From a virus: DNA of 64,000 bases. The position numbers were made by a program, and so were the translations under genes. This document shows, one piece after another, positions 7,008 to 22,260 of this stretch (positions are counted from its first letter, which is position 1; each line of letters opens with the position of its first letter). The notes under the pieces were generated by a model. It did not search any database. It was not told the DNA's origin and was given only the letters and a program-made list of their open reading frames with translations. Location: IMG/VR virus record IMGVR_UViG_3300013119_001061; one strand, given 5' to 3'.

Positions 7008-7955
7008 ATGAAAACTCGAAAAACACTTTCAAAAGAAAACAAAAAATATATTGACAAACTTCTAGCAGGCAATGACCAGATGTTTATTAGTCAAGAGATG
7101 CTCGAAGTCATTAAGAAAGAAACTGGCCTGACAAGAATGGCGATAAAGCACCAGATATATGATCTTGAATTTGATTATAATTTTGGGTATTCATGGGGTG
7201 AGTTTGATAACAAGACACCCGGAAAGGCACGAGTTTATTTTAGATGCAAGACGTGTAATTGCAAATACAGCATGTTAGCGATCAAGCTTAGAGGACGAAC
7301 GTATAGCAACGACCCGATATGCCCAGATCACTATGCTAAGATTGTGACTTCGTCAAAAGTGTGGCGAGAAAAGAATAGAAGTGCACAGCTTGTTTCGCAA
7401 AATTTACCAGAGGCAAAAGAGAAGCAACGAGTTTCACAACTTCGACGACATGCACAGCCCGGAATGAAAGAAAAATATCGCCAGATCGGCTTAACACTGT
7501 GGAAAGATCCGGAGTATGCAAAAAGAGTATCAAGCTCACTTCGAGAAAAATGGAAAGATCCGGAGTATGCAAACAAGGTGATGAATAACTCAAAGCAACA
7601 ATATCATGGTAGCTACAGCGGAATGAGGTATCAAAGCTTAATTGAACTATCTTTTATTCTGTGGATGGTTAGTGTAAAAAGAAATATTGGGCGTTATAAT
7701 CTAGAGGGAATAAAATGGGATGGAAACAGAAGCTATTATCCTGATTTTATTGTTGATGGAAATCTAATAGTTGAAGTCAAGGGGACCTTAAAGGGATTTA
7801 TGTATCAAAGAGAAGACGAGATAAAGAGAAAGCAATCTGCTTTAATAGAGTGGTGCAAAGACAGAAAATATGAGCAAAGAATTGTTGTAAAGAAAGACAT
7901 ACCGAAAGAATTCTACGAGAAGGCAAGGAAAGTGCATGACAAAATTAATCTCTAA
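7008..7955 (+). CDS. free-standing homing endonuclease (PD-(D/E)xK, TnsA-N-like) between split-intein halves
   Basis: YQSLIE...YYPDFIVDGNLIVEVKG; CxxC and WKDPEY repeats; location inside the fractured gene. Confidence 0.75.
   Translation: MKTRKTLSKENKKYIDKLLAGNDQMFISQEMLEVIKKETGLTRMAIKHQIYDLEFDYNFGYSWGEFDNKTPGKARVYFRCKTCNCKYSMLAIKLRGRTYSNDPICPDHYAKIVTSSKVWREKNRSAQLVSQNLPEAKEKQRVSQLRRHAQPGMKEKYRQIGLTLWKDPEYAKRVSSSLREKWKDPEYANKVMNNSKQQYHGSYSGMRYQSLIELSFILWMVSVKRNIGRYNLEGIKWDGNRSYYPDFIVDGNLIVEVKGTLKGFMYQREDEIKRKQSALIEWCKDRKYEQRIVVKKDIPKEFYEKARKVHDKINL
7500..7573 (+). repeat. 23-bp direct repeat x2 (TGGAAAGATCCGGAGTATGCAAA), 51-bp period
   Basis: Copies at 7500-7522 and 7551-7573, encoding WKDPEYA. 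Confidence 0.9.
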
Positions 7956-10554
7956 AAAGCTTGTTCCGTATGATGGAAAAGTAATTGACCTATGTGTTGA
8001 AAATTCACACACGTATAACGTTGAAGGAAAAGCAGTTCACAATTCAGGCGCCGGCAGTTTAGTCAATTACTTGCTAGGAATCACGCAGATTGACCCGATT
8101 CCATACGGTCTACTTTGGAGTCGATTCCTCGGCAGACACAGGACATCGTGGCCGGATATCGACTCGGATGCAGGAGATCGAGATGCACTCATTGATGCCG
8201 CCCGAGAGCTGTTTGGTAATGATGCTGTTATTCCCGTAAGCAACTTTAATACACTCAAGCTAAAGTCAATTGTCAAGGATGTTGCTAAGTTCTATGATGT
8301 TCCTTTTCAAGAGGTAAATATCGTCACAGGACCATTACAAGCTGACGTAGAGCCTCATGCTCGAGATGCTAATACTGAGAAGTCGGTATTCGTTTTGACC
8401 CACGAGGATTGCATGAAGTATTCAGAGAAATATCTTGCTTTCATGACGAAATATCCGCATGTAGAAGATCATGTGAGCACGTTGTTTATGGAGCAAAAAT
8501 CAATTGGCCGTCATGCAGGCGGTGTTCTTATTGCAGATGCACGTGAGCTTGAGAAGACAATCCCACTAATCTCAGTTCGAGGTGACTTGCAAACTCCGTG
8601 GACTGAGGGAATGAACTTCAGAAACCTCGAAGATAATGGGTTCATTAAGTTTGATTTCCTCGGACTCACACTGATGAAAGATGTGGAAAATTGTATCCGA
8701 AGAATCCTCATTAAAGACGGGCAAAAGAATCCATCGTTTATGGATATCAAGGAATTCTTTGATAAAAACTTGAATTGTCGTACTATTAAGCAAGATGATC
8801 CAAGGGTATGGGAGAATGTATATCACCAAAAGAACTTTGCCCCAGGCATCTTTCAGTTTACTGCGCAAGGAGCTCGAAACTTCTGTATGCAAGCTAAGCC
8901 TGAAAACATTGAGGAGCTCGGTGCAATCACAGCAATTTATCGACCGGGCCCACTGAAGGCAAATGTTCATATTGATTATGTCGCAGCAAAGAACGACCGA
9001 GACAATATCGTGTATGACCACCCAGTGATTGAGAAGATCCTCGGTGCAACTTGTGGATTCATCACGTTTCAAGAGCAGTTCATGACTTTGGCAGTGGAAC
9101 TAGCAGGATTTACGCCCGGCGAATCTGATAAAATGCGTAAGACGCTGGTGAAGAAGTCGCTTGACACAATCGGCAAAAAAGGTTCAGAACGTGATGCATT
9201 GCGCAAGAAGTTTGTTGAAGGTGCTGAGAGATTACATGATCTAGATCCGAAAATCACACATGCACTCTTCGACAAGATCGAGTTCTTCAGCCTGTATGGG
9301 TTTAATAAATCACATGCTATCTCTTACGCAATTGACAGTTACTACGCAGCATGGCTCTTTACTTATCACCCCAATGAGTGGATTGCAGCTGTTCTTCAAT
9401 CTGAAAATGGAAGCCCGAAAAATCTGTCAAAAGCAATCCGCGAGGCAAAGGTTCTTGACTTCAAGTTCGAACAGTCAGACATCAACTACTCGGGCATTGA
9501 GTGGGAATTTAACTATGAAAAGAACGCATTCATTCCGCCGCTAACCTCCATCAAAGGTTTGGGAAAGACGGCGATGGCAGAACTGATTAAGCATAGACCC
9601 TATGCGTCAGTCAAAGATCTGTTCTTTAATAAGCGCGGTGAATGGCGATTCTCAAAGGCAAATAAGACAACCTTCGGAGCGCTATGTCAAATTGAGGCAT
9701 TCTCATCACTTGACGAGCTTGAAAGCGGAGATATTGAAAATCACCGACAGCTTTATCACTTGATTGTGGACAATTACGATAAAATCAAAAAAGCAAATGA
9801 TGGAAAACAAAAGTGGTTGGATAAGCTTCCTGTCCTCGCTGAAAAAAATTATGAGGAGGTCAAAAAGATTATCAAGGTATTCGAAAAATACAAGAATGAA
9901 GACACTGCATTAAAAATGAAGGCAGTTGTTGAAGATTCAAATGTCATGGATTGGAACTATATTGACAATCTTTCATCTGAGCTTAGGGTATACGAGCACA
10001 ATCAGCCTCGACGACAGCTGCAAGTCGACAGATGCTTCACCCGCCTAGAAGAGAACACTGTAAAAAGAGATAAAATCTTAGATAGGCTTGATCAATATTT
10101 CGATCTCAAAGAAGCAATCAAGGATTATGAAGATATCGAAGACTGGGCAAGAGATGAAAAGATTCGGCTATATCAAGAGATCACGTCAGCAATCAATAAC
10201 GAGCTTGTATTTCCGTCTGAAGTAATGGATAGAATCACGAGGACTGATATGCCGTCAGTATGTGAAATTGAGGGCGGCCAAAAGGCTGTGGCATGGGGTT
10301 GCATCGCCGAGGTTCAAAAGAAGAAGACGAAAAAGGGAAAAGATTTCTATCGTCTCAGAATGATCGATGAGCAAAACCGAAATTGCTGGCTCAGGGTTTG
10401 GGGTAAGTTCTTTGATTGGGGCGAAGAAAGAGGGCAGAAGGTTTATTATGAACCCCCTTCATTCTCTTATTGGTTGATGGAAGTTGACGTCGATCCGAAT
10501 TGGGGAGCATCTACTGCAGCATGGAAAATGAGAAGGATACCTCTTGTTGATTAA
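7936..10554 (+). CDS. dnaE: split-intein C-half (36 aa) fused to DNA polymerase III alpha C-terminal part
   Basis: VIDLCVENSHTYNVEGKAVHN|SGAGSLVNYLLGITQIDP; WPDIDSD, HAGGV, KFDFLGL, YRPGP, YGFNKSHA. Confidence 0.93.
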   Translation: MTKLISKKLVPYDGKVIDLCVENSHTYNVEGKAVHNSGAGSLVNYLLGITQIDPIPYGLLWSRFLGRHRTSWPDIDSDAGDRDALIDAARELFGNDAVIPVSNFNTLKLKSIVKDVAKFYDVPFQEVNIVTGPLQADVEPHARDANTEKSVFVLTHEDCMKYSEKYLAFMTKYPHVEDHVSTLFMEQKSIGRHAGGVLIADARELEKTIPLISVRGDLQTPWTEGMNFRNLEDNGFIKFDFLGLTLMKDVENCIRRILIKDGQKNPSFMDIKEFFDKNLNCRTIKQDDPRVWENVYHQKNFAPGIFQFTAQGARNFCMQAKPENIEELGAITAIYRPGPLKANVHIDYVAAKNDRDNIVYDHPVIEKILGATCGFITFQEQFMTLAVELAGFTPGESDKMRKTLVKKSLDTIGKKGSERDALRKKFVEGAERLHDLDPKITHALFDKIEFFSLYGFNKSHAISYAIDSYYAAWLFTYHPNEWIAAVLQSENGSPKNLSKAIREAKVLDFKFEQSDINYSGIEWEFNYEKNAFIPPLTSIKGLGKTAMAELIKHRPYASVKDLFFNKRGEWRFSKANKTTFGALCQIEAFSSLDELESGDIENHRQLYHLIVDNYDKIKKANDGKQKWLDKLPVLAEKNYEEVKKIIKVFEKYKNEDTALKMKAVVEDSNVMDWNYIDNLSSELRVYEHNQPRRQLQVDRCFTRLEENTVKRDKILDRLDQYFDLKEAIKDYEDIEDWARDEKIRLYQEITSAINNELVFPSEVMDRITRTDMPSVCEIEGGQKAVAWGCIAEVQKKKTKKGKDFYRLRMIDEQNRNCWLRVWGKFFDWGEERGQKVYYEPPSFSYWLMEVDVDPNWGASTAAWKMRRIPLVD

Positions 10555-14586: not shown

Positions 14587-15069
14587 ATGATATTAAGTTT
14601 AATTTTAGCTGCAAATATTTGTAATAGCCCAATAAAATTAAACACTGGGTATATTTCTTCCCATTATGGCCCGAGGCAAATGATTAAGAACGGCTTAGTG
14701 TCACACCACGACGGAGTTGATATTGCAGCAAAAGTTGGGACACCAATCTATTCAATTCAGGCAGGTAAGATAAAGTCAGTTCATATTCAAGACGATGGAG
14801 CAAAGATTGTCGACACTATTTCAGTTGATGATCAAGGTGTTTCCAGGATTATACGATATGCTCACCTAAGCAAATTTTCTGTCACAGAAGGTCAGCTTAT
14901 TGAATCGGGTGGATTAATCGGTTATGTGGGAATGACTGGGAATACAACCGGCCCACACGTTCATATTTCAACAGCCCTTTATGTTCACAATAAGGGTAAA
15001 TACATTCATCAAAATCCCGAAAAAGTTTTAAACCTCTGTAAATACAAGGTGAAAATTGAGTATAAATAA
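14587..15069 (+). CDS. M23 family peptidase
   Basis: HDGVDIAA, YAHLS, TGPHVH. Confidence 0.9.
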   Translation: MILSLILAANICNSPIKLNTGYISSHYGPRQMIKNGLVSHHDGVDIAAKVGTPIYSIQAGKIKSVHIQDDGAKIVDTISVDDQGVSRIIRYAHLSKFSVTEGQLIESGGLIGYVGMTGNTTGPHVHISTALYVHNKGKYIHQNPEKVLNLCKYKVKIEYK

Positions 15070-15121
15070 AGCAGCTCTGTCAATCACTAGCAAGGTTTTT
15101 AAAAATAAATGAAAAAAAGAG

Positions 15122-15148
15122 GAAACCCTCTCGAAAAATGTCCGATAA
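15122..15148 (+). promoter_or_regulatory. sigma28/FliA-like promoter GAAA-N15-TCCGATAA
   Basis: Similar to the consensus TAAA-N15-GCCGATAA; upstream of the T3SS-subunit-like genes; SD GGGAGG before 15185. Confidence 0.4.
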
Positions 15149-15184
15149 TATAGATAGGAAAACAATTAATGGGAGGTTTTCAAA

Positions 15185-16009
15185 ATGGTAGTTGGAATTA
15201 ATTCTCTTGGGACACGCGTTAATAAAGCAATGGATAATCTTGGTTACCCAGATGCAATTGGCGATATTGTCGGAGCCCAAACTGATCTTGCAACCTTTAA
15301 CATCTCAGGCGCAGTTCAAAACTGGAAAGATCTATTCTCAGGAATGCCGACTGCAAAGTTTCTAACTAAACCATCTGATGCAATTGCGCGATCACGACAA
15401 TTGCATAGTGACACATATGCAGCAGGTTCAGGTGGAACATTGGCTACTGCACTCCAAAAGATGGACGGCGAACTCATGGATCTTATGAAAGCTGCAGGTT
15501 CAAAAGTAGGTTCATTAATGAATCAACAAGGGAGTGGCCAAGCTGACCTTGGCGATCTGGTCGGCCCAAATGCACCAATTGAAGACCGAATTGCAGCTTT
15601 CTTGTTCAAGCAAATGAAGGAAAGCGATAAAGCTCTTGAAGCACAAATGAAGAAATACGAAGCTATCGGTAAATCTACCAAAAAGAAATCGGGTGGATTC
15701 TTTGGTTCAATCAAATCTGCATTCAAATCAGTTGCATCATCTGCATTTTCAATCGGCGGAGGAGCGCTCGGCGGAATGATCGGCGGTCCAATCGGAACCA
15801 AACTCGGTTCTGCGTTCGGCGGCGGATTATTCGGCGGAATGTTCGGCAAGAAAAAAGCAGCTAGTAGTGACAAGGAACATTCAAAATCAGTAATGAACTT
15901 TAAGATTCAGCAATTGATGAACAAAAGGGCACAATTACATGACTTAATATCTAATGTTTTAAAAACGATGCATTCAATGAGCATGAATTGCATTAGAAAT
16001 ATAAAATAA
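15185..16009 (+). CDS. T3SS tip/filament (Bsp22/EspA-like) protein with Gly-zipper
   Basis: C-terminal helix KIQQLMNKRAQLHDLISNVLKTMHSMSMNCIRNIK; GGxxGG hydrophobic segment. Confidence 0.5.
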   Translation: MVVGINSLGTRVNKAMDNLGYPDAIGDIVGAQTDLATFNISGAVQNWKDLFSGMPTAKFLTKPSDAIARSRQLHSDTYAAGSGGTLATALQKMDGELMDLMKAAGSKVGSLMNQQGSGQADLGDLVGPNAPIEDRIAAFLFKQMKESDKALEAQMKKYEAIGKSTKKKSGGFFGSIKSAFKSVASSAFSIGGGALGGMIGGPIGTKLGSAFGGGLFGGMFGKKKAASSDKEHSKSVMNFKIQQLMNKRAQLHDLISNVLKTMHSMSMNCIRNIK

Positions 16010-16024
16010 TAAATATTTATCAAT

Positions 16025-16987
16025 ATGTTAGTTGAAACATTTTACATAGTTCCGGCAGATGGAAAACAAAAAAACCCAAGAAAGAAGCTGGTTGCTAAAT
16101 TTAGTTGTGATATATGCAGTGAAGAATTTCAATCTTCAAATTCAATAAAAAAGAAGATTAAAAGAAATAATCACTTTTGTTCTAAGTTTTGTTTCGGTGA
16201 ATCTTTAAGAAATTCTGGTCATTTAAGACGACAGATAGAAGATACAAATTTAAAAAAGTATGGAGTAAAAAATCCTGCGTCACTCAAAGAAACTAAAGAG
16301 AAAATAGAGAACACTAGATTAAAAAAGTATGGTGTAAAGCACTTGATGCAATCGCAGGAATTCTTAGACAAGAGGGTTAAAACATATATTAAGAATCTTG
16401 GTGTTGATAATCCGTCAAAATCAAAAGAAGTTCAAGATAAGAAGGTTATGACTAGCATAAAGAACCACGGAGCAACTCATCCGCACATGAGTAAAAAAAT
16501 ACAAGAAAAATATAAGAAAACATGTAGGGAGAGGTTTGGTGTAGATAACCCGCTATCAAATAACAGGGTAAGAGAAAAATGCAAAGAAACGCTTGTGAAA
16601 AGATATGGTGTAGAGTTTTCACTACAGTCTGACGAGATAATTGAAAAATTTTATAAAACAAAATTTGGAATATCAAGAAGCGACTACATTGCACAACTGC
16701 CAGAGTTTGAAAACTACAAAAGAGAAGTAAGTAAGATCACAAACCAACAACCCATTCACTTGCTAGAAAACTCTAATAAAAATAGAGGTAAAGGTGAAGA
16801 CGACTACCAGCTTGATCACATGTTTTCAAAGCGGGAAGGTTTTTTACAAGATATAGATTCAGAAATAATTGGAAATATATGCAATCTTGAATTCATCCCG
16901 GCAAGAGAAAATATATCAAAGGGAAAAGATTGCTCGATATCAAAAGAAGAACTAATAAAAAGATTCAACGAATCAGATAAGGAATAA
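16025..16987 (+). CDS. putative HNH homing endonuclease with KKYGVxNP repeats
   Basis: CDIC...FCSKFC, about six YG/FG/LG-VxNP repeats, C-terminal LDH...N...EN. Confidence 0.7.
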   Translation: MLVETFYIVPADGKQKNPRKKLVAKFSCDICSEEFQSSNSIKKKIKRNNHFCSKFCFGESLRNSGHLRRQIEDTNLKKYGVKNPASLKETKEKIENTRLKKYGVKHLMQSQEFLDKRVKTYIKNLGVDNPSKSKEVQDKKVMTSIKNHGATHPHMSKKIQEKYKKTCRERFGVDNPLSNNRVREKCKETLVKRYGVEFSLQSDEIIEKFYKTKFGISRSDYIAQLPEFENYKREVSKITNQQPIHLLENSNKNRGKGEDDYQLDHMFSKREGFLQDIDSEIIGNICNLEFIPARENISKGKDCSISKEELIKRFNESDKE

Positions 16988-16990
16988 AAA

Positions 16991-17479
16991 ATGACCGGTA
17001 TCAATAGATTAAACAGTGGAAATTCAATTCGAGTTAATTCGGCACCGCTTCATACCCGACAAACTGCAAGAAATGATTTTGGGTCACAGATAGGCCGCGG
17101 AGTTGCTAACGGTGCAAATGCTGTAGCTGGCGCTGTTGCAGTTGCTGCACCATTCGTCCCAGGCGGAGCGGTTGTAAGTGCTACCATAAATCAAGCAGCA
17201 GGCGCCATCGGCAATTACGCCCCAGGTGGAACAATGAATACTCCGGGCCAGATGCCGGGACCAAATACCCAAATTGGTGCTGGTCAAGCCGGAACCTCAA
17301 GCACACAATCACTGATGGATCAAACTAAGCAAATGCAGGAGATGCAGATGTCGTTCAATCTACAATATCTAAATCTTCAAAATAAGATGCAAAATGAGAA
17401 TCGTCAATATAGTACTATCTCAAATGTCCTTAAAGCAAAGTCAGATACTGCTAAGAACGCAATAAATAATATACGCTAA
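16991..17479 (+). CDS. T3SS needle (SctF)-like protein
   Basis: C-terminal LQYLNLQNKMQNENRQYSTISNVLKAKSDTAKNAINNIR resembles the needle-subunit terminal helix. Confidence 0.55.
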   Translation: MTGINRLNSGNSIRVNSAPLHTRQTARNDFGSQIGRGVANGANAVAGAVAVAAPFVPGGAVVSATINQAAGAIGNYAPGGTMNTPGQMPGPNTQIGAGQAGTSSTQSLMDQTKQMQEMQMSFNLQYLNLQNKMQNENRQYSTISNVLKAKSDTAKNAINNIR

Positions 17480-17481
17480 AA

Positions 17482-17889
17482 ATGGATATCCCTGGTCTTA
17501 ATATACAGATACCTGCAGTTAATCCTCAAGTATCACCACAGAATATATCTAAGAGTTTCCAGGATGTCCTTAGTGAAGGTTCGTCTTCTTCTACAATAGG
17601 TAATATATCTTCCACCCAAAAGATGACAGAAGTCACACCTACACCAAAACTCCGAGTAGACAAAACAGAAAATACAAACTTCAATAAAATATTCTCAGGT
17701 TTGATATCTGGGCAAGGGAAACTCGACAAAATAATCAAGCTTGCAACCTCAGGAAAGTCATTCAGTCCTACCGAACTACTTGCAATTCAAGCAGGAGTTT
17801 ATAAATTCAGTCAGGAACTTGAATTAACTTCAAAGGTGGTCGAAAAAGCAACTGATGGTGTTAAACAGACTTTACAGACTCAGGTATAA
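17482..17889 (+). CDS. T3SS inner rod (SctI/YscI/HrpB2)-like protein
   Basis: C-terminal SPTELLAIQAGVYKFSQELELTSKVVEKATDGVKQTLQTQV; low-complexity N-terminus; directly follows the SctF-like gene. Confidence 0.6.
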   Translation: MDIPGLNIQIPAVNPQVSPQNISKSFQDVLSEGSSSSTIGNISSTQKMTEVTPTPKLRVDKTENTNFNKIFSGLISGQGKLDKIIKLATSGKSFSPTELLAIQAGVYKFSQELELTSKVVEKATDGVKQTLQTQV

Positions 17890-17940
17890 ATCTTTCCTCG
17901 CATAGGGTATATTTATTAATACCTTCCTCGGAGTGTGTAT

Positions 17941-18387
17941 ATGCAAATCAAGTTAAATGAATTACGTCAAATAATTCGAGAAGAACTAAGCAGAATCAAT
18001 GAATCATCTGAACATGATCACGAAACGATTTGGGATAAAGCTGACGAAATGTTAAAGTCAGAACTATCTCCTGACGAGATAAGTCAGTTTATGGGTCTTG
18101 CTGCACTTTACGATGAAGGAAAAACATATACAGAAATTCAAGGTTGGCTTCGGTTTAGGCCTCAAATAAAGAGGCTTTTAATTTCAGCTGCTTTAGGAAA
18201 CAAACCTAAATCAGTTAAAAAACATTTAAACCGTTTGTCAAAATATTTAGATGAGTATTTAAAAGTATCAAATCAATCTATTGACGACCTTCAAGATGAC
18301 GGCTGGGATTCTTTCGTTGGAATATCTGAAGAAATTATGTCTAATCCAATGAGTGCATCATTTTTAAAAAGGCGATGGAAGTCGTAA
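17941..18387 (+). CDS. hypothetical protein with 'ELRQIIREE' leader (putative virion protein)
   Basis: MQIKLNELRQIIREELSRINE; ATATTTAT upstream. Confidence 0.6.
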   Translation: MQIKLNELRQIIREELSRINESSEHDHETIWDKADEMLKSELSPDEISQFMGLAALYDEGKTYTEIQGWLRFRPQIKRLLISAALGNKPKSVKKHLNRLSKYLDEYLKVSNQSIDDLQDDGWDSFVGISEEIMSNPMSASFLKRRWKS

Positions 18388-19100: not shown

Positions 19101-20306
19101 ATGACACTAAATGAAAATGACTTGCGATTGCTAATTAGATCTATTCTGCAAGAGCAAGAAGAGCCTGAAGAAGAAGAAGCGCTCGAAGTAGAGAAAGAAG
19201 ATTTGACGCCGTTCGAGATGTCAACAGTTGCAAAAAACAAAGCAGCTATTTTCATACAAGTGCTGAAGTCATTAGGGCTCCCGGTCAGAGACAAACATGT
19301 TAAAGCAAGTATAAAATCTGGAGGCGAAATTCGGGTAGCAATAGATCAGGATGTTACAGAGCCCAAAACTGAAAAAGAGCTCCTGACTTTCGTCGAACTA
19401 GCATTCCAAAAAATACTAGGTAGAGATGTCGAAGTCGAAGTTCTCTCTCCGAATGAGGGAAGAAATACTAGCGGAACATATGCAGGATACAGTGTTGAAG
19501 GGCAACCACTAATTTCATTTGGGAATTCTGGATTTGGAAAATCGCAACGGGCCGGAGGGTTCGAATATGAAACAAGAATGGCAGAATTCCTTAAGGATGA
19601 AAACATAGACTTTAAAGCTGACGACAACATGAAGACGTCAGACATAGAGATAAACGGAATTATGATCGAACTCAAAAAACAAGATGCCGATGGTGGTTCA
19701 CCAGCTCTTGTGTATGACTTCAACAAATCAGAATTTTATCCGAAGCGTAGCTCAAGTGCAAATAATTACCTTGTAGATATGATCAACTCAACATTTGACA
19801 AAGAAGAGACAAAGCGAAAACTTGATATCATCAAAAACAAAATCAACCTCGACGCTGCTACGCTCCAGTCAGTCACTATGGAGCAGTTTGAAACAATAGT
19901 TCAGCCTTTTCTAGAAAAAGAGGCAAATCAAAATGTATCTAATTCAAAAATTACCTCTGAAGACATAGCGATGTACTATAGAGAAAAAGGGGCTAAGTTT
20001 ATTCAAATACGGGGCAAGGGATTATATCATATAGATGAAAAAAATGCTGCAACCCTAGGTGACGGAAGGAAGACATCGCTGTTTACTTTCCCGGACGACG
20101 TCGGTGCAGCAGTTACTTTTAGAAACTATCACGGTGCTCGCGCCCTCCGCCCAAGAATAAAGGGAAGTGCATTCAAGAAGCCGGAAAACTCTCCCGTTAG
20201 CCTCGACAATCCTGAAGATCGTAAGCTTTTTGCAGCCTGGGCTGAGAAACAAAACCTCAACGAATCTACACAAAATCGCTGGGAACTTTTAGCGGGAATT
20301 AAGTAA
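19101..20306 (+). CDS. hypothetical protein, possible PD-(D/E)xK nuclease domain
   Basis: GFEYE...SDIEINGIMIELKK; leader NENDLRLLIRSILQE; C-terminal RWELLAGIK. Confidence 0.5.
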   Translation: MTLNENDLRLLIRSILQEQEEPEEEEALEVEKEDLTPFEMSTVAKNKAAIFIQVLKSLGLPVRDKHVKASIKSGGEIRVAIDQDVTEPKTEKELLTFVELAFQKILGRDVEVEVLSPNEGRNTSGTYAGYSVEGQPLISFGNSGFGKSQRAGGFEYETRMAEFLKDENIDFKADDNMKTSDIEINGIMIELKKQDADGGSPALVYDFNKSEFYPKRSSSANNYLVDMINSTFDKEETKRKLDIIKNKINLDAATLQSVTMEQFETIVQPFLEKEANQNVSNSKITSEDIAMYYREKGAKFIQIRGKGLYHIDEKNAATLGDGRKTSLFTFPDDVGAAVTFRNYHGARALRPRIKGSAFKKPENSPVSLDNPEDRKLFAAWAEKQNLNESTQNRWELLAGIK

Positions 20307-20356
20307 TAAATTTAAAAGACATGTGTTATAATCTTTCATAACGTATAGGAGAAAGC

Positions 20357-21199
20357 GTGAAAATCCAAGAGACTCTTGCCTACGAAGATGTTCTACTCGT
20401 CCCCCAATACTCAGACATTAAATCCCGATCAGAATGTGACACATCAGTCACTCTCGGCTCCGGAGTCAATCTCAAGCTACCCATTATTGCATCATGCATG
20501 GACACGGTGACTGAAGCTGAGATGGCTGCAGCAATCGGTCTTATGGGTGGCCTCGGCGTCATCCACCGGTATAATTCGCCAGAGGAACAAGCACAGCAAG
20601 TAATAAAAGCAATACAATTATCAGAGCATGAGGCACCTATTGCCGCAGCGATTGGAGTAACAGATGACTATTTTCACCGAGCAGACCTTCTTGTTAATGC
20701 TGGAGCCTCTGCTCTTTGCATTGATGTGGCACATGGTCACCACATTCTCGTAAAAGAGGTGCTAGAGGAGCTTCGTGCTACTCTGGGTGAGGATTTTTGC
20801 TTGATTGCAGGTAATGTTGCCACCCTCGAGGGAATTAACGACCTCGCTGATTGGGGGGCTAACGCAGTACGCTGCAACATCGGCGGAGGCTGCTTTGTTC
20901 CGGGTACAAAAGTTCGAACTGAAAACGGTTTAAAGAATATTGAAAATGTTAAAGTCGGTGATAGAGTCTATACACATACAGGAAATCTAAAGCCAGTTAT
21001 TGATACATTAGCTTTTGATAGAAGTGAAGCAATAACTGTGATTAACGATATTGAATGTACATCAAATCATGAATTTTATGTCGTAAACAGAGAAGATGTC
21101 GAACTTATCAATGAAAACAATATTCACGAGTATGCAAAGTGGATCGCAGCATATGATCTAGACGAACAGCAACATCTTTTAATAAAAACATTGGAATAG
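20357..21199 (+). CDS. guaB: IMP dehydrogenase/GMP reductase family N-part (no CBS) fused to split-intein N-half
   Basis: EDVLLVPQYS, MDTVTE, GGLGVIHR, IDVAHGH, AGNVAT, IGGG|CFVPGT. Confidence 0.88.
   Translation: MKIQETLAYEDVLLVPQYSDIKSRSECDTSVTLGSGVNLKLPIIASCMDTVTEAEMAAAIGLMGGLGVIHRYNSPEEQAQQVIKAIQLSEHEAPIAAAIGVTDDYFHRADLLVNAGASALCIDVAHGHHILVKEVLEELRATLGEDFCLIAGNVATLEGINDLADWGANAVRCNIGGGCFVPGTKVRTENGLKNIENVKVGDRVYTHTGNLKPVIDTLAFDRSEAITVINDIECTSNHEFYVVNREDVELINENNIHEYAKWIAAYDLDEQQHLLIKTLE
20891..21196 (+). mobile_element. split intein N-half (102 aa), IMPDH-1-like
   Basis: CFVPGTKVRTENGLKNIE...CTSNHEFYV. Confidence 0.92.
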
Positions 21200-21249
21200 G
21201 ATCAAAATGTATCTACTTGTATATTTATATACATAGGGAGCCATATTCA

Positions 21250-22260
21250 ATGTGTAGTAAAGAAAAATATTGTAGAGAGTGCGGAGAATCAATATCGAGC
21301 AAAAAAACATTTTGCGATTCGATTTGCTATGAGAAAAATAGAAAAGTTGATGATATAAAAAAGTGCAATTATTGCAAAGAAGACTTTGCTTGCCAGGGTT
21401 CTAGTCGGCTATACTGCTCTAAAGAATGCAGAACTAAAGGGACGAGAGTTAAAAATGGATATAAGAAAAAGCTCTGTCAAGAATGCAAAGAAGAAATATT
21501 GGGCCGCGGCACCAAATACTGTTCAAACAAATGCAAAGGGCTAGCAAAGGCTGGCAAGAATAACTCATTTTATGGCAAGAAGCACTCTAAAGAAACCAGG
21601 GAGAAGATAAGAAATGCTCTATCAGGAAAGCTATCCGGAGACAAAAATCCATTTTACGGCAAAATACACTCGGATGCTACAAAACAGAAGATAATTGATG
21701 GAAACAAAAAATTTAGAGAAGAAAATAAAGTCTTAGTTCTTGAAAGAACACTGCGACGTCTAGGTTTGACTGAAAGCAAGCTGGAGGGCCTGTGGCACAC
21801 GTATTCGACCACACTCGAGTTTAACCAGAGTGATCTTAAAAGACTCGCGGGCAACATAGACATAAGATCGATTAAAAAATATTTGTTCTTTTTTAATATA
21901 GTTGATGAAGATGAATTTGAAAAAACTGTGCATAAGAAAAAGATGGGTCGAGCCGGATCTTCCCCTGAGCGACGATTATATGAAATGTTATGTGCTAAGT
22001 TTGGCAGGAGAAACATAAGTAGGCAATTTAAGATAGAGAGAAAGTTTTATGATTTTATAGTTTTTGGAAAATATTTGATAGAATATGATGGTTATTACTG
22101 GCATAATAATTCAAAATCAAGAGACGATATTAAGGATGACATTGCAAAAAGAAGTGGATATCCTTTGTATCGAGTAAAAGAGCCAAAAAATAGAAGCGTT
22201 GATTTTATTGATGAAATAGAAAAAATTGAAGGGTTTATAAATGAAGTTCGAATTAGTTGA
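21250..22260 (+). CDS. free-standing homing endonuclease (CxxC repeats, NUMOD3, Vsr/DUF559-like nuclease)
   Basis: NSFYGKKHSKET and NPFYGKIHSDAT; YDFIVFGKYLIEYDGYYWH; ATG 21250 after GGGAG. Confidence 0.8.
   Translation: MCSKEKYCRECGESISSKKTFCDSICYEKNRKVDDIKKCNYCKEDFACQGSSRLYCSKECRTKGTRVKNGYKKKLCQECKEEILGRGTKYCSNKCKGLAKAGKNNSFYGKKHSKETREKIRNALSGKLSGDKNPFYGKIHSDATKQKIIDGNKKFREENKVLVLERTLRRLGLTESKLEGLWHTYSTTLEFNQSDLKRLAGNIDIRSIKKYLFFFNIVDEDEFEKTVHKKKMGRAGSSPERRLYEMLCAKFGRRNISRQFKIERKFYDFIVFGKYLIEYDGYYWHNNSKSRDDIKDDIAKRSGYPLYRVKEPKNRSVDFIDEIEKIEGFINEVRIS

Follow-up and report, generated by a model that had tools for sequence, protein, structure and literature searches.

A phage-borne cassette of predicted type III secretion substrates related to proteins of Myxococcota secretion loci

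Genes for type III secretion system (T3SS) effectors are known from phages, as with SopE-phi and the effectors of Gifsy and lambdoid prophages. Phages are also known to carry genes for host subunits with a high turnover, of which cyanophage psbA is an example. On the bacterial side, a system of relevance here is the T3SS* of Myxococcus, which was described as having no needle, translocon or secretin (PMC12075869, PMC10849154) and which is needed for prey lysis (PMC12075869). Here, we focus on a stretch of viral DNA of 64,000 nucleotides (IMG/VR record IMGVR_UViG_3300013119_001061, referred to as the window) with three genes, A, B and C, that were originally predicted to encode tip-, needle- and inner-rod-like T3SS subunits. 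We found no report in the literature of a phage carrying exported structural T3SS subunits. In the reading that we consider reasonably probable, the cassette consists of three genes that derive from a host, encode exported parts of a non-flagellar T3SS and reside on marine T4-like jumbo phages, and their products would be exported and assembled on the machine of the host.

The cassette and the phages that carry it

The three co-oriented genes are present in the list of open reading frames with the starts and C-termini claimed for them. All are on the plus strand: gene A (15185-16009, 274 aa) ends in NCIRNIK, gene B (16991-17479, 162 aa) in NAINNIR and gene C (17482-17889, 135 aa) in QTLQTQV. 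No Sec signal is apparent at the N-terminus of any of the three. Their adjacency held only in part, with B and C lying 2 nt apart but the gap between A and B being filled by a homing-endonuclease gene (16025-16987, plus strand, 320 aa) that matches Pfam DUF7487 (1.2e-27), phrog_3339 (2.6e-20) and phrog_12131 (homing endonuclease). This gene has a GC content of 0.32 vs. 0.42-0.45 for A and B, and it is missing from the A-B junction of three related viral contigs, where A, B and C are contiguous. It is an insertion between A and B with no part in the function of the cassette. Upstream of A, the intergenic region (15061-15184, plus strand) contains a T4-late-promoter-like TATAAATA at 15061-15068 and a GGGAGG ribosome-binding site at 15172-15177. 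This putative T4-late-type promoter and ribosome-binding site serve as a lead only; TATAAATA is found 6 times in the window with 2.7 expected, an enrichment that is not significant. No convincing sigma-70-type promoter was found before A.

Homolog matches for the three proteins number 338, 193 and 29, the last being those of A. The phage copies, with dN/dS values of 0.055-0.097 (only where dS was estimable), are under purifying selection. Together with the many homologs and with the contiguous A-B-C arrangement on three other distinct viral contigs, these values argue that the three genes are real and beyond chance.

That the genes are phage-borne was confirmed through a relative. The DnaE encoded in the window is 77% identical to the DnaE of a 235-kb contig (IMG/VR contig 3300009108_000751, 235,681 bp) with contiguous A, B and C, a T4 Gp23 capsid gene (PF07068, 1e-63) and a T4 portal gene (PF07230, 3e-77). 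The window itself has no phage structural gene; its genes, all on one strand, include those for a DnaE-type polymerase, a helicase, GroEL, and Clp- and FtsH-like proteins. Judging by the T4-type capsid and portal of this close relative, the virus is a T4-like (Straboviridae-type) jumbo phage. The flanks of the cassette vary between phages, and a PilX_N-like gene is found near it in the 235-kb relative. An M23 peptidase gene just upstream was considered as a further member of the cassette and rejected, as it is not a conserved neighbour of the cassette in the other phages. Described phages offer no precedent at the sequence level: blastn of the region against GenBank phages gave no match, and tblastn with B and C found no homolog in 50,697 GenBank phage records.

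The window was also said to have no ring, ATPase or export-apparatus gene, with the phage supplying exported subunits only. Both statements agree with our searches. Queries of the window by tblastn with Myxococcota Sct proteins were negative, it contains neither a core nor a chaperone gene, and contig 3300009108_000751 has no FHIPEP (SctV) or T3SS-ATPase (SctN) domain. As the phage brings neither a basal body nor an ATPase, an export gate or a chaperone of its own, the products of the cassette can act only via the machine of the host.

The three proteins and their bacterial counterparts

The phage proteins had been likened to those of myxobacterial T3SS loci. The genomes bear this out for B and C, whose homologs occupy the sctF and sctI positions directly 5' of sctJ in four loci and thus do lie in T3SS loci beside sctJ. 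In the loci L037, L039 and L040, the order is B, C and SctJ followed by export-apparatus genes, with SctR, SctU and SctV in all three and SctQ and SctT additionally in L039 and L040. Locus L038 reads B, TPR, a 131-aa protein, sigma factor, C, SctJ, SctK-like, SctL and SctN, which mirrors yscF-G-H-I-J-K-L of pCD1, while L027 has the Pfam-confirmed order C-like, SctJ, SctL and SctN. The module of B, TPR, small protein, sigma factor and C is conserved in L001, L019, L020 and L038, and both L038 and L001 show the order characteristic of an sctF gene with its TPR gene (B, TPR, ..., C, SctJ). Across 151 genomes sampled from the phylum of a marine Myxococcota metagenome-assembled genome (MAG) with close homologs, the B family was found in 125 and the C family in 121. 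The situation was not so clear for the distant B-like loci L004-L018, which have no T3SS neighbours and share as their sole conserved neighbour one small downstream gene in three Myxococcota-type loci. These loci first seemed to oppose a link to T3SS, until closer Myxococcota genomes resolved it. A flagellar identity of B and C was considered as well, as the host-clade MAG has a full flagellar locus. It was rejected since B and C lie beside short SctJ-type lipoprotein genes with SctL, SctN, SctQ, SctR, SctU and SctV.

The B protein has a conserved, hydrophobic N-terminal domain (Kyte-Doolittle 1.9, with a hydrophobic stretch at residues 44-62). This is followed by a linker rich in Gly and Pro and then by a needle-type helix, about 55 aa long, at the C-terminus. 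B and its homolog in the marine MAG (L001:7808-8326) share 63% identity, with the highest conservation at the C-terminus. An end-anchored, ungapped profile of its last 34 aa ranked MxiH first (27.0) and YscF second (22.3) among 287 ORFs, the next score being 12.5. YscF was also the top match in hmmsearch (E 0.14), and a search of 177,635 PDB sequences with the C-terminus returned a single match, the EsaG33-73 needle fragment of 7Y6C (E 1.1). Each of these signals is weak alone but they agree, and on sequence the C-terminal helix is of the needle type. Other comparisons were negative: B does not match PF09392 (SctF), nor was there a match in the genome scans, hhalign of the B profile against a single YscF sequence was not significant (probability about 1%), and single-sequence PDB searches with B and with C gave chance matches only. 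A search of 400 genomes of one class with PF09392, meant to gather canonical SctF sequences, found no match anywhere, controls included, and so carries no weight either way. Precomputed PF09392 marks fall on the C family and not on the B family. In the Atlas, 11% of one neighbouring cluster carries PF09392, which is a lead only.

The prediction of a needle-like protein therefore stands for the C-terminus of B, which matches needle proteins, but not for the remainder, as B has twice the size of SctF and a hydrophobic N-terminal domain. Its 162 aa, and the 160-230 aa of the bacterial homologs, fall outside the 70-90 aa or so of a helix-turn-helix hairpin, and the AF2 monomer of B, a model of low confidence (pLDDT 51), has a single long helix at the C-terminus. 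The C-terminal domain itself extends beyond T3SS. It occurs in 3,219 clusters, many with Sec signal peptides, Nif11-type or double-glycine-like leaders and non-T3SS neighbourhoods; by a crude rule, 44 or more of the 149 best representatives have a Sec-type signal peptide before it. In P0277 it directly follows a Nif11-like leader that has GG at its end (TIGR03798, E 3.5e-7, slightly below the cut-off), and in P0279 a double-glycine-like leader. Compared with the SctF needles (YscF, MxiH, PrgI and EsaG), B thus shares the needle-type C-terminus, the absence of a Sec signal and homologs at the sctF position, and it differs in its length, its extra N-terminal domain and linker, the lack of a demonstrated P-x-x-P turn, its failure to reach PF09392, the Sec or Nif11-type leaders before its C-terminal domain elsewhere, and its residence on a phage. 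By gene order, B corresponds to the needle-position (sctF) gene.

A TPR gene follows the B-like gene in some loci, as yscG follows yscF, which invites comparison with the SctF/SctG-SctE arrangement. Complex prediction of the host TPR protein with the C-terminal 59 aa of phage B gave a score of 0.74 vs. 0.03 for the best of 3 controls, with residues 138-162 of B lying in the TPR groove, an arrangement also found in 7Y6C. The runs agreed with each other in at least 94% of contacts, and the partner had a pLDDT of at least 66. Of 80 solved complexes, 58 attain the mark for this score, as do 2 of 110 mismatched pairs; these counts are only roughly valid here as custom alignments were used. The model supports the prediction that phage B binds the host TPR protein. 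The score may, at the same time, reflect memory of solved YscG-type chaperone-needle complexes (7Y6C), that is, likeness rather than binding.

In the product of gene C, the N-terminal half is variable and the last 60 aa are very conserved. Its C-terminal half shares 80% identity with L001:10001-10504, and the host form exceeds the phage form in length by about 32 aa. Its designation as inner-rod-like is backed by consistent matches to SctI, although all of them remain under the curated thresholds. C matches PF17001 with E 0.006 (17.5 bits, below the cut-off of 32.4) and NCBIfam T3SS_SctI (NF038054) with E 0.017 (15.2 bits, below the cut-off of 39). Members of the C family behave alike, with 22 of 27 matching PF17001 weakly (best 1.4e-4), and a C homolog is the best match of the SctI profile in all three genomes checked (G002, G006 and G007) of five from Myxococcota. 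MxiI came top of 287 plasmid ORFs in hmmsearch with the C-family profile (E 0.24, not significant). The rod-profile rank test, with 12 parameter settings each scored as the best of four small register shifts, is to be read with this number of trials in mind. The C-family profile found no match in the PDB, and hhalign against a single YscI sequence was not significant (probability about 1%). As in SctI proteins (YscI/LcrO, MxiI and PrgJ), C is of a similar size class with a conserved C-terminal helix, and its homologs lie directly 5' of sctJ (L027, L037, L038, L039 and L040). It is unlike them in its unrelated and variable N-terminal half, its scores, its phage location, where no sctJ adjoins it, and the sigma-factor gene found between the C-like and needle-position genes in several Myxococcota. 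C is thus predicted, at sub-threshold scores, to be the inner-rod (SctI) equivalent.

Gene A was taken for a tip or filament protein of the Bsp22/EspA type, and here the original prediction found no backing: A matches none of the tip and filament families (LcrV, IpaD, EspA and Bsp22) in Pfam, NCBIfam or PHROG. The N-terminal region of the protein is helical, and roughly residues 170-221 form a hydrophobic segment rich in glycine whose Kyte-Doolittle value peaks at only 1.15. The needle-type helix at its C-terminus is shared with the B family (hhalign probability 92%, E 5e-7). The Myxococcota protein of which A is a shortened homolog has 365-369 aa and includes an insert of about 95 aa that the phage form lacks. 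The homolog in the host clade (L043:9892-10989, 55% identity over residues 77-274) is found in the order MBL-fold, SctU, a 139-aa protein, TPR and A-like. As it follows sctU and a TPR chaperone gene, and given its glycine-rich core, A looks more like a translocator-like substrate than a tip protein. The host form has a faint match to SseD (E 0.085), xenorhabdolysin is matched faintly too, and A has weak matches to a pore-forming toxin family (E 0.016) and to tape-measure PHROGs (phrog_167, E 3e-4). The AF2 model is all-helical at low confidence (pLDDT 41). The likeness to translocators and their chaperones (YopB/D-LcrH, IpaB/C-IpgC and SseD) thus lies in the position of the A homolog directly after a TPR gene, the glycine-rich hydrophobic centre and the C-terminal amphipathic helix. 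The differences are the lack of a significant sequence or fold match, a needle-type C-terminus and the absence of some 95 aa of the host form.

Origin and possible purposes of the phage genes

The phage copies have a GC3 of 0.28-0.34 vs. 0.64-0.70 in the host homologs and are fully adapted to the base composition of the phage. In the tree, the B copies of the phages are grouped together (support 88) within a 98%-supported clade that includes marine Myxococcota. In the host-clade MAG, A is found in a different locus from B and C, while the phage keeps all three together. This joining of A to B and C, the B grouping, the phage-like GC3 and the low dN/dS point to long residence and function in phages. 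By sequence comparison, the three genes are host-derived and were acquired long ago from a marine Myxococcota T3SS, and marine Myxococcota are the likely host.

If the products work on the host machine, host TPR chaperones, encoded next to the host B, would bind them, the host T3SS would export them, and they would assemble on it through C-terminal helices that closely match those of the host. The purpose to which we lean, at somewhat less than an even chance, would be resupply of consumable exported subunits in the manner of cyanophage psbA. This would keep up or boost the secretion function of the host, which in Myxococcus is T3SS-dependent prey lysis, as host gene expression declines. Several observations speak against the overall reading of host-derived, exported T3SS parts. 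None of the three proteins reaches a curated family threshold, the AF2 monomers of A and B are of low confidence, and the C-terminal domain of B is also found outside T3SS. The roughly 95 aa missing from phage A could mean an altered or antagonistic function, and the Myxococcus T3SS* is described as needleless (PMC12075869, PMC10849154).

Altered subunits that can still assemble might instead cap, jam or remodel the host T3SS. Such sabotage or masking, which we regard as unlikely, could keep out superinfecting phages for which the appendage is the receptor, or close a costly, leaky channel. It would account for assembly helices near those of the host (C 80% over its C-terminal half, B 63% overall) alongside parts that differ (A without its insert, the shorter C), and for a phage that brings exported parts only; the PilX_N-like gene suggests that these phages have other surface-appendage parts. 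However, B is full length with an N-terminal domain conserved with that of the host, there is no evidence of any phage using this T3SS as a receptor, and purifying selection fits a normal function equally well as antagonism. Also improbable, though worth stating for what it would entail, is that the phage re-arms a 'needleless' T3SS, with the shortened A capping a B filament on host basal bodies over a C rod. The machine of a predator would then serve the phage, for example in excluding competitor phages or in lysing neighbours or prey that feed the infected cell, and the B, C and A families would turn out to be the needle, rod and translocon that had so long been missing from the T3SS of Myxococcota.

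Control of transcription coupled to chaperones is established in other T3SSs, as with IpgC-MxiE and SicA-InvF. Phage B, and A, could by analogy titrate the host TPR chaperones and switch the regulon of the sigma-70-family factor in the T3SS locus during takeover. The module conserved in L001, L019, L020 and L038 has the gene order this would call for, and the TPR-B model (0.74 vs. 0.03) agrees with it, subject to the same caution about memory of solved complexes. But nothing shows the TPR protein touching the sigma factor, and this reading, which we hold to be doubtful, does not account for all four phage lineages having kept the separately encoded A and the rod protein C alongside B.

We give still less credence to the C-terminal domain shared by A and B (about 55 aa) being an autonomous extracellular peptide, bacteriocin-like or lytic, used against neighbouring cells or for lysis. 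The Sec-type, Nif11-like and double-glycine-like leaders described above would suit a peptide, as would the glycine-zipper-like hydrophobic segment of A with its match to a pore-forming toxin family and the requirement of the Myxococcus T3SS* for prey lysis (PMC12075869). The domain, however, differs from typical bacteriocins in being very polar and in its unusual degree of conservation between phyla; in Myxococcota it is encoded at the sctF position with an SctG-like TPR gene as neighbour, its match to needle C-termini is specific, and the co-carried rod protein C is unexplained. Finally, that A, B and C are tail-internal or ejected parts of the virion merely resembling T3SS proteins, as the tape-measure matches of A and the M23 peptidase gene might hint, or that host DNA was mis-assembled into the contig, is highly improbable: the homologs are single- or low-copy genes within T3SS operons in most Myxococcota genomes sampled, the region holds metabolic and replication genes rather than structural ones with varying flanks and no conserved M23 neighbour, and four independent viral contigs with phage-like GC3 carry the cassette, which likewise opposes the chimeric host DNA named as a danger in the original prediction.

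Comparison with known systems

If the favoured reading of exported, host-derived T3SS parts is correct, a close bacterial counterpart is the 'needleless' T3SS* of M. xanthus (PMC12075869, PMC10849154). It belongs to the same phylum, and the B and C families are found in such operons, including in a 9.8-Mb complete genome. The two differ in that the literature reports no needle or translocon homologs for the T3SS*, and the loci discussed here are compared with it by phylum and not equated with mxan_2434-2464. Although the system is called needleless, the sctF and sctI positions are occupied by genes of the B and C families in most Myxococcota genomes sampled, and these genes are candidates in Myxococcus xanthus. 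Along with the A-like genes, they seem to have been overlooked as candidates for the roles that this T3SS is said to leave unfilled. Furthermore, the needle-type C-terminal domain emerges as a large family whose members also carry Sec and Nif11-type leaders, and the cassette suggests that uncultured T4-like jumbo phages infect marine Myxococcota.

On the phage side, the cassette resembles the effector phages and cyanophage psbA in that its genes would work through a host machine that the phage does not encode. The effector phages, on the other hand, provide late substrates to animal pathogens through genes of lysogenic conversion. Here, the carrier appears to be a lytic-type T4-like jumbo phage, and the predicted products are structural or early-to-middle substrates (rod, needle-position and translocator-like) of the T3SS of an environmental predator. 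With T3SS effectors already known from phages, the cassette would be a novel means by which a virus influences a nanomachine of its host.

The cassette and its phage setting

[quoted passage not shown] Their description as a three-gene cassette needs some adjustment: B and C are 2 nt apart, but A and B are parted by a 320-aa homing-endonuclease gene (16025-16987; Pfam DUF7487, 1.2e-27; phrog_3339 and homing-endonuclease PHROGs), which fills exactly the A-B intergenic gap and has a GC of 0.32, below that of its neighbours. Three further, distinct viral contigs have A, B and C side by side, and because the endonuclease gene is missing from the A-B junction there, it is regarded as a secondary insertion. 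Ahead of A, TATAAATA at 15061 is a lead only on expression time (early or late). Directly after C there is a 150-aa gene (17935-18387) with 58% identity to the post-C gene of a related 235-kb phage contig and no counterpart at this position in the two remaining viral contigs. Its protein has no family match, and its N-terminus is similar to those of several other small window genes.

The long ORFs of the window are all on a single strand and encode a DnaE-type polymerase, a helicase, Clp-like and FtsH-like proteins, GroEL and homing endonucleases, with no structural gene among them. The window DnaE is 77% identical to that of the 235-kb relative, IMG/VR contig 3300009108_000751 (235,681 bp, CheckV completeness 70%), which bears the A-B-C cassette together with a T4-type major capsid gene (PF07068, 1e-63) and a T4-type portal gene (PF07230, 3e-77). 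The GC3 of A, B and C is 0.28-0.34, which is phage-like, while that of bacterial homologs is 0.64-0.70. A chimera or mis-assembly is ruled against by this phage-like GC3 and by the presence of the cassette on four independent viral contigs, which makes chimeric assembly an unlikely source. The claim that the phage carries exported parts only, and no core gene, holds. The domain search of the 235-kb relative gave no FHIPEP (SctV) and no T3SS-ATPase C-terminal domain, and when the T3SS core, chaperone and sigma proteins of Myxococcota were compared with the window by tblastn, the matches were confined to B, C and, weakly, the C-terminus of A.

Other genes of the two contigs deserve mention. The DnaE C-terminal gene of the window (7936-10554, 872 aa) corresponds to a portion of one 1,297-aa open frame in the relative (G010:C1:174360-176873), so the split dnaE is not common to that relative. 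In the 20357-22260 region, the gene starting at 20357 has the look of an IMP-dehydrogenase/GMP-reductase-type barrel with an intein-like block (C-F-V-P-G-T-K...) within, and is followed by a homing-endonuclease-like ORF (21217-22260; phrog_314). Near the cassette of the 235-kb relative (L029:1-3287 and 19474-20402) are genes for an FtsH-like protease, a trypsin-like protease, a PilX_N-domain protein and DnaJ; the PilX_N gene, minor-pilin-like, is another host-appendage-like gene.

Gene order and the identity of B and C

Gene order is the strongest evidence on the identity of B, whose 172-aa counterpart in a marine Myxococcota MAG (L001) shares 63% identity with it. Among 151 genomes sampled from the phylum of this MAG, the B family occurs in 125 and the C family, by its family profile, in 121. 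In the bacterial loci L037 (from a complete 9.8-Mb genome), L039 and L040, B, C and SctJ are encoded in this order on one strand and are followed by the export-apparatus genes SctR, SctU and SctV; L039 and L040 additionally have SctQ and SctT. The order in L038 is B, TPR, a 131-aa gene, a sigma-70-family gene, C, SctJ, SctK-like, SctL and SctN, which parallels yscF-yscG-yscH-yscI-yscJ-yscK-yscL of pCD1. In L027, the C homolog is directly upstream of sctJ, followed by a 365-aa gene, sctL and sctN (all by Pfam). These operon loci come from the Myxococcota genomes G155, G139, G031 and G002, and some Myxococcota loci have a TPR gene after B, in the manner of yscG after yscF. The sigma-70-family gene (regions 2 and 4; L001:9208-9960, L019:8979-9767, L020:12567-13535 and L038:9408-10247) has the SctG-like TPR gene and a small gene (125-147 aa) on one side and the SctI-like gene on the other, an embedding that suggests secretion-coupled transcription control.

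C has 338 homologs, and its last ~60 residues are nearly invariant. It matches Pfam T3SS_basalb_I below threshold (E 0.006), as do 22 of 27 family members (best 1.4e-4), and NCBIfam T3SS_SctI weakly (E 0.017). A best match to the SctI profile was obtained in each of five Myxococcota genomes, and in the three that were checked (G002, G006 and G007) it is the C homolog. Some SctI-like C homologs from Myxococcota MAGs (P0093, P0104, P0118 and P0119) are labelled 'ATP-dependent helicase HrpB' by NCBI, apparently a mix-up of the RNA helicase HrpB with the T3SS protein HrpB.

For the needle-type C-terminus of B, each sequence test is weak and all agree. With the last 34 residues as an end-anchored, ungapped profile, MxiH (27.0) ranked first and YscF (22.3) second against a background of 287 ORFs from the T3SS regions of pCD1 and pCP301, the next scoring 12.5. 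YscF was also the top hmmsearch match to the B profile, at a non-significant E of 0.14. The sole match in the PDB (177,635 sequences) was a 43-residue chain of 7Y6C (E 1.1), whose label names a co-chaperone family and which by its length and the paper is the needle fragment EsaG33-73; there, the fragment sits in the concave face of the helical-repeat chaperone EsaH (PMC9426511). When the TPR protein encoded beside the host B homolog (L001:8412-8831) was modeled with the last 59 residues of phage B, residues 138-162 of B were placed against the TPR. The model scored 0.74 versus 0.03 for the best of three controls, with at least 94% contact agreement between runs and a partner pLDDT of at least 66. 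Among solved complexes, 58 of 80 attain the mark for this score, as do 2 of 110 mismatched pairs, counts that are rough because custom alignments were used; since like complexes are already solved, the model may be reproducing known structures. What the predicted complex indicates is likeness to a chaperone-needle pair, not binding.

B has double the length of SctF and carries an additional, conserved domain at its N-terminus, part of which is hydrophobic (Kyte-Doolittle 1.9). It has no match to the needle family PF09392, and its AF2 model is poor. The proposal of needle- and rod-like subunits is largely right for B and C, given their operon position, the sub-threshold SctI matches and the needle-type C-terminus of B, but B is not a typical SctF.

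Gene A and the shared C-terminal domain

For A, proposed as a tip-like subunit, nothing points to a tip or filament family. Full-length bacterial homologs of A with strong matches (E 1e-128 to 1e-138) belong to a small-genome marine clade, from which the best matches to B and C also come. In this clade and on the bacterial contig L041, the A homolog comes after sctU, a ~140-aa gene and a TPR gene, an arrangement typical of translocators and their class II chaperones. The core of A is hydrophobic and rich in glycine. The host form of A resembles the SseD-translocon family faintly (E 0.085), and the phage form is without ~95 residues present in that host form. The lack of a tip or filament match, the TPR-adjacent layout and the glycine-rich core lead us to read A as putatively translocator-like, and the tip-like assignment is abandoned.

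The hhalign comparison (probability 92%, E 5e-7) shows that A has its last 34 residues in common with the B family. The needle-type C-terminal domain of B and A, ~55 aa with the core motif SFNLQYL...SNIMKTKHDTAKNAINN[IV]R, belongs to a family of 3,219 clusters at 50% identity (E up to 0.001; members P0270-P0418 and L004-L018, e.g., L009:9926-10327 and L014:9629-10183). Its position is invariably the extreme C-terminus, and no Pfam or NCBIfam model covers it. Many members have Sec-type signal peptides; in P0277 the domain follows a Nif11-like leader ending in GG, in P0279 a double-glycine-like leader, and in others still other N-termini. Carriers include Acidobacteriota, Aminicenantes and Gemmatimonadota, among others, and the neighbourhoods examined have no T3SS genes. 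Therefore, the domain is not exclusive to T3SS.

Origin, possible role and relation to known systems

In the host-clade MAG, A is on contig C11 and B and C are on contig C73, at different loci, while A-B-C are kept together in all four phage lineages. The phage copies are mutually 51-80% identical with saturated synonymous sites, and their dN/dS, where estimable, is 0.055-0.097. In a quick B tree with an arbitrary root, they form one group (support 88) within a 98%-supported clade with marine Myxococcota. The near-universal occurrence of these families in Myxococcota, within T3SS operons, is most simply explained by an ancient bacterium-to-phage transfer, and marine Myxococcota are the likely host of these phages. 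A full flagellar locus (L022, G006:C86:22200-42100, with MotAB, FliM, FliO, FliP, FlhA, FlhF, FlgF/G, FlgA, FlgH and FlgI) is present in the marine Myxococcota MAG whose genes are nearest to those of the phage, together with scattered non-flagellar T3SS genes and a second, apparently orphan, FHIPEP gene (L023:2134-4296).

The evidence on the cassette thus covers homology, operon position, phage context, selection and compositional adaptation. Because it has no basal body, ATPase or chaperone of its own, its products would act only through the host T3SS, presumably via host chaperones and their own host-like C-terminal helices. We favour a resupply of exported, non-recyclable subunits by the phage, by which the host secretion function would be sustained during infection; in Myxococcus, the 'needleless' T3SS* is required for prey lysis and nutrient gain (PMC12075869). 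The products could instead cap or mask the host T3SS antagonistically, or they could titrate host TPR chaperones, whose genes adjoin a sigma factor gene. A secreted-peptide role for the shared C-terminal domain is a further rival, and a role of A, B and C in the virion is unlikely.

No homolog of B or C was found by tblastn against 50,697 GenBank phage records, and the literature searched had no account of needle or rod genes carried by a phage. Reviews describe the T3SS* of M. xanthus as being without needle and translocon homologs (PMC10849154). In the 'needleless' Myxococcota operons, the places of sctF and sctI are taken by conserved small genes of the B and C families. The B, C and A families may be the missing needle and translocon parts of the Myxococcota T3SS*. 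The cassette, of interest for both phage biology and the Myxococcota T3SS, is a novel variant of host-machine genes carried by phages.
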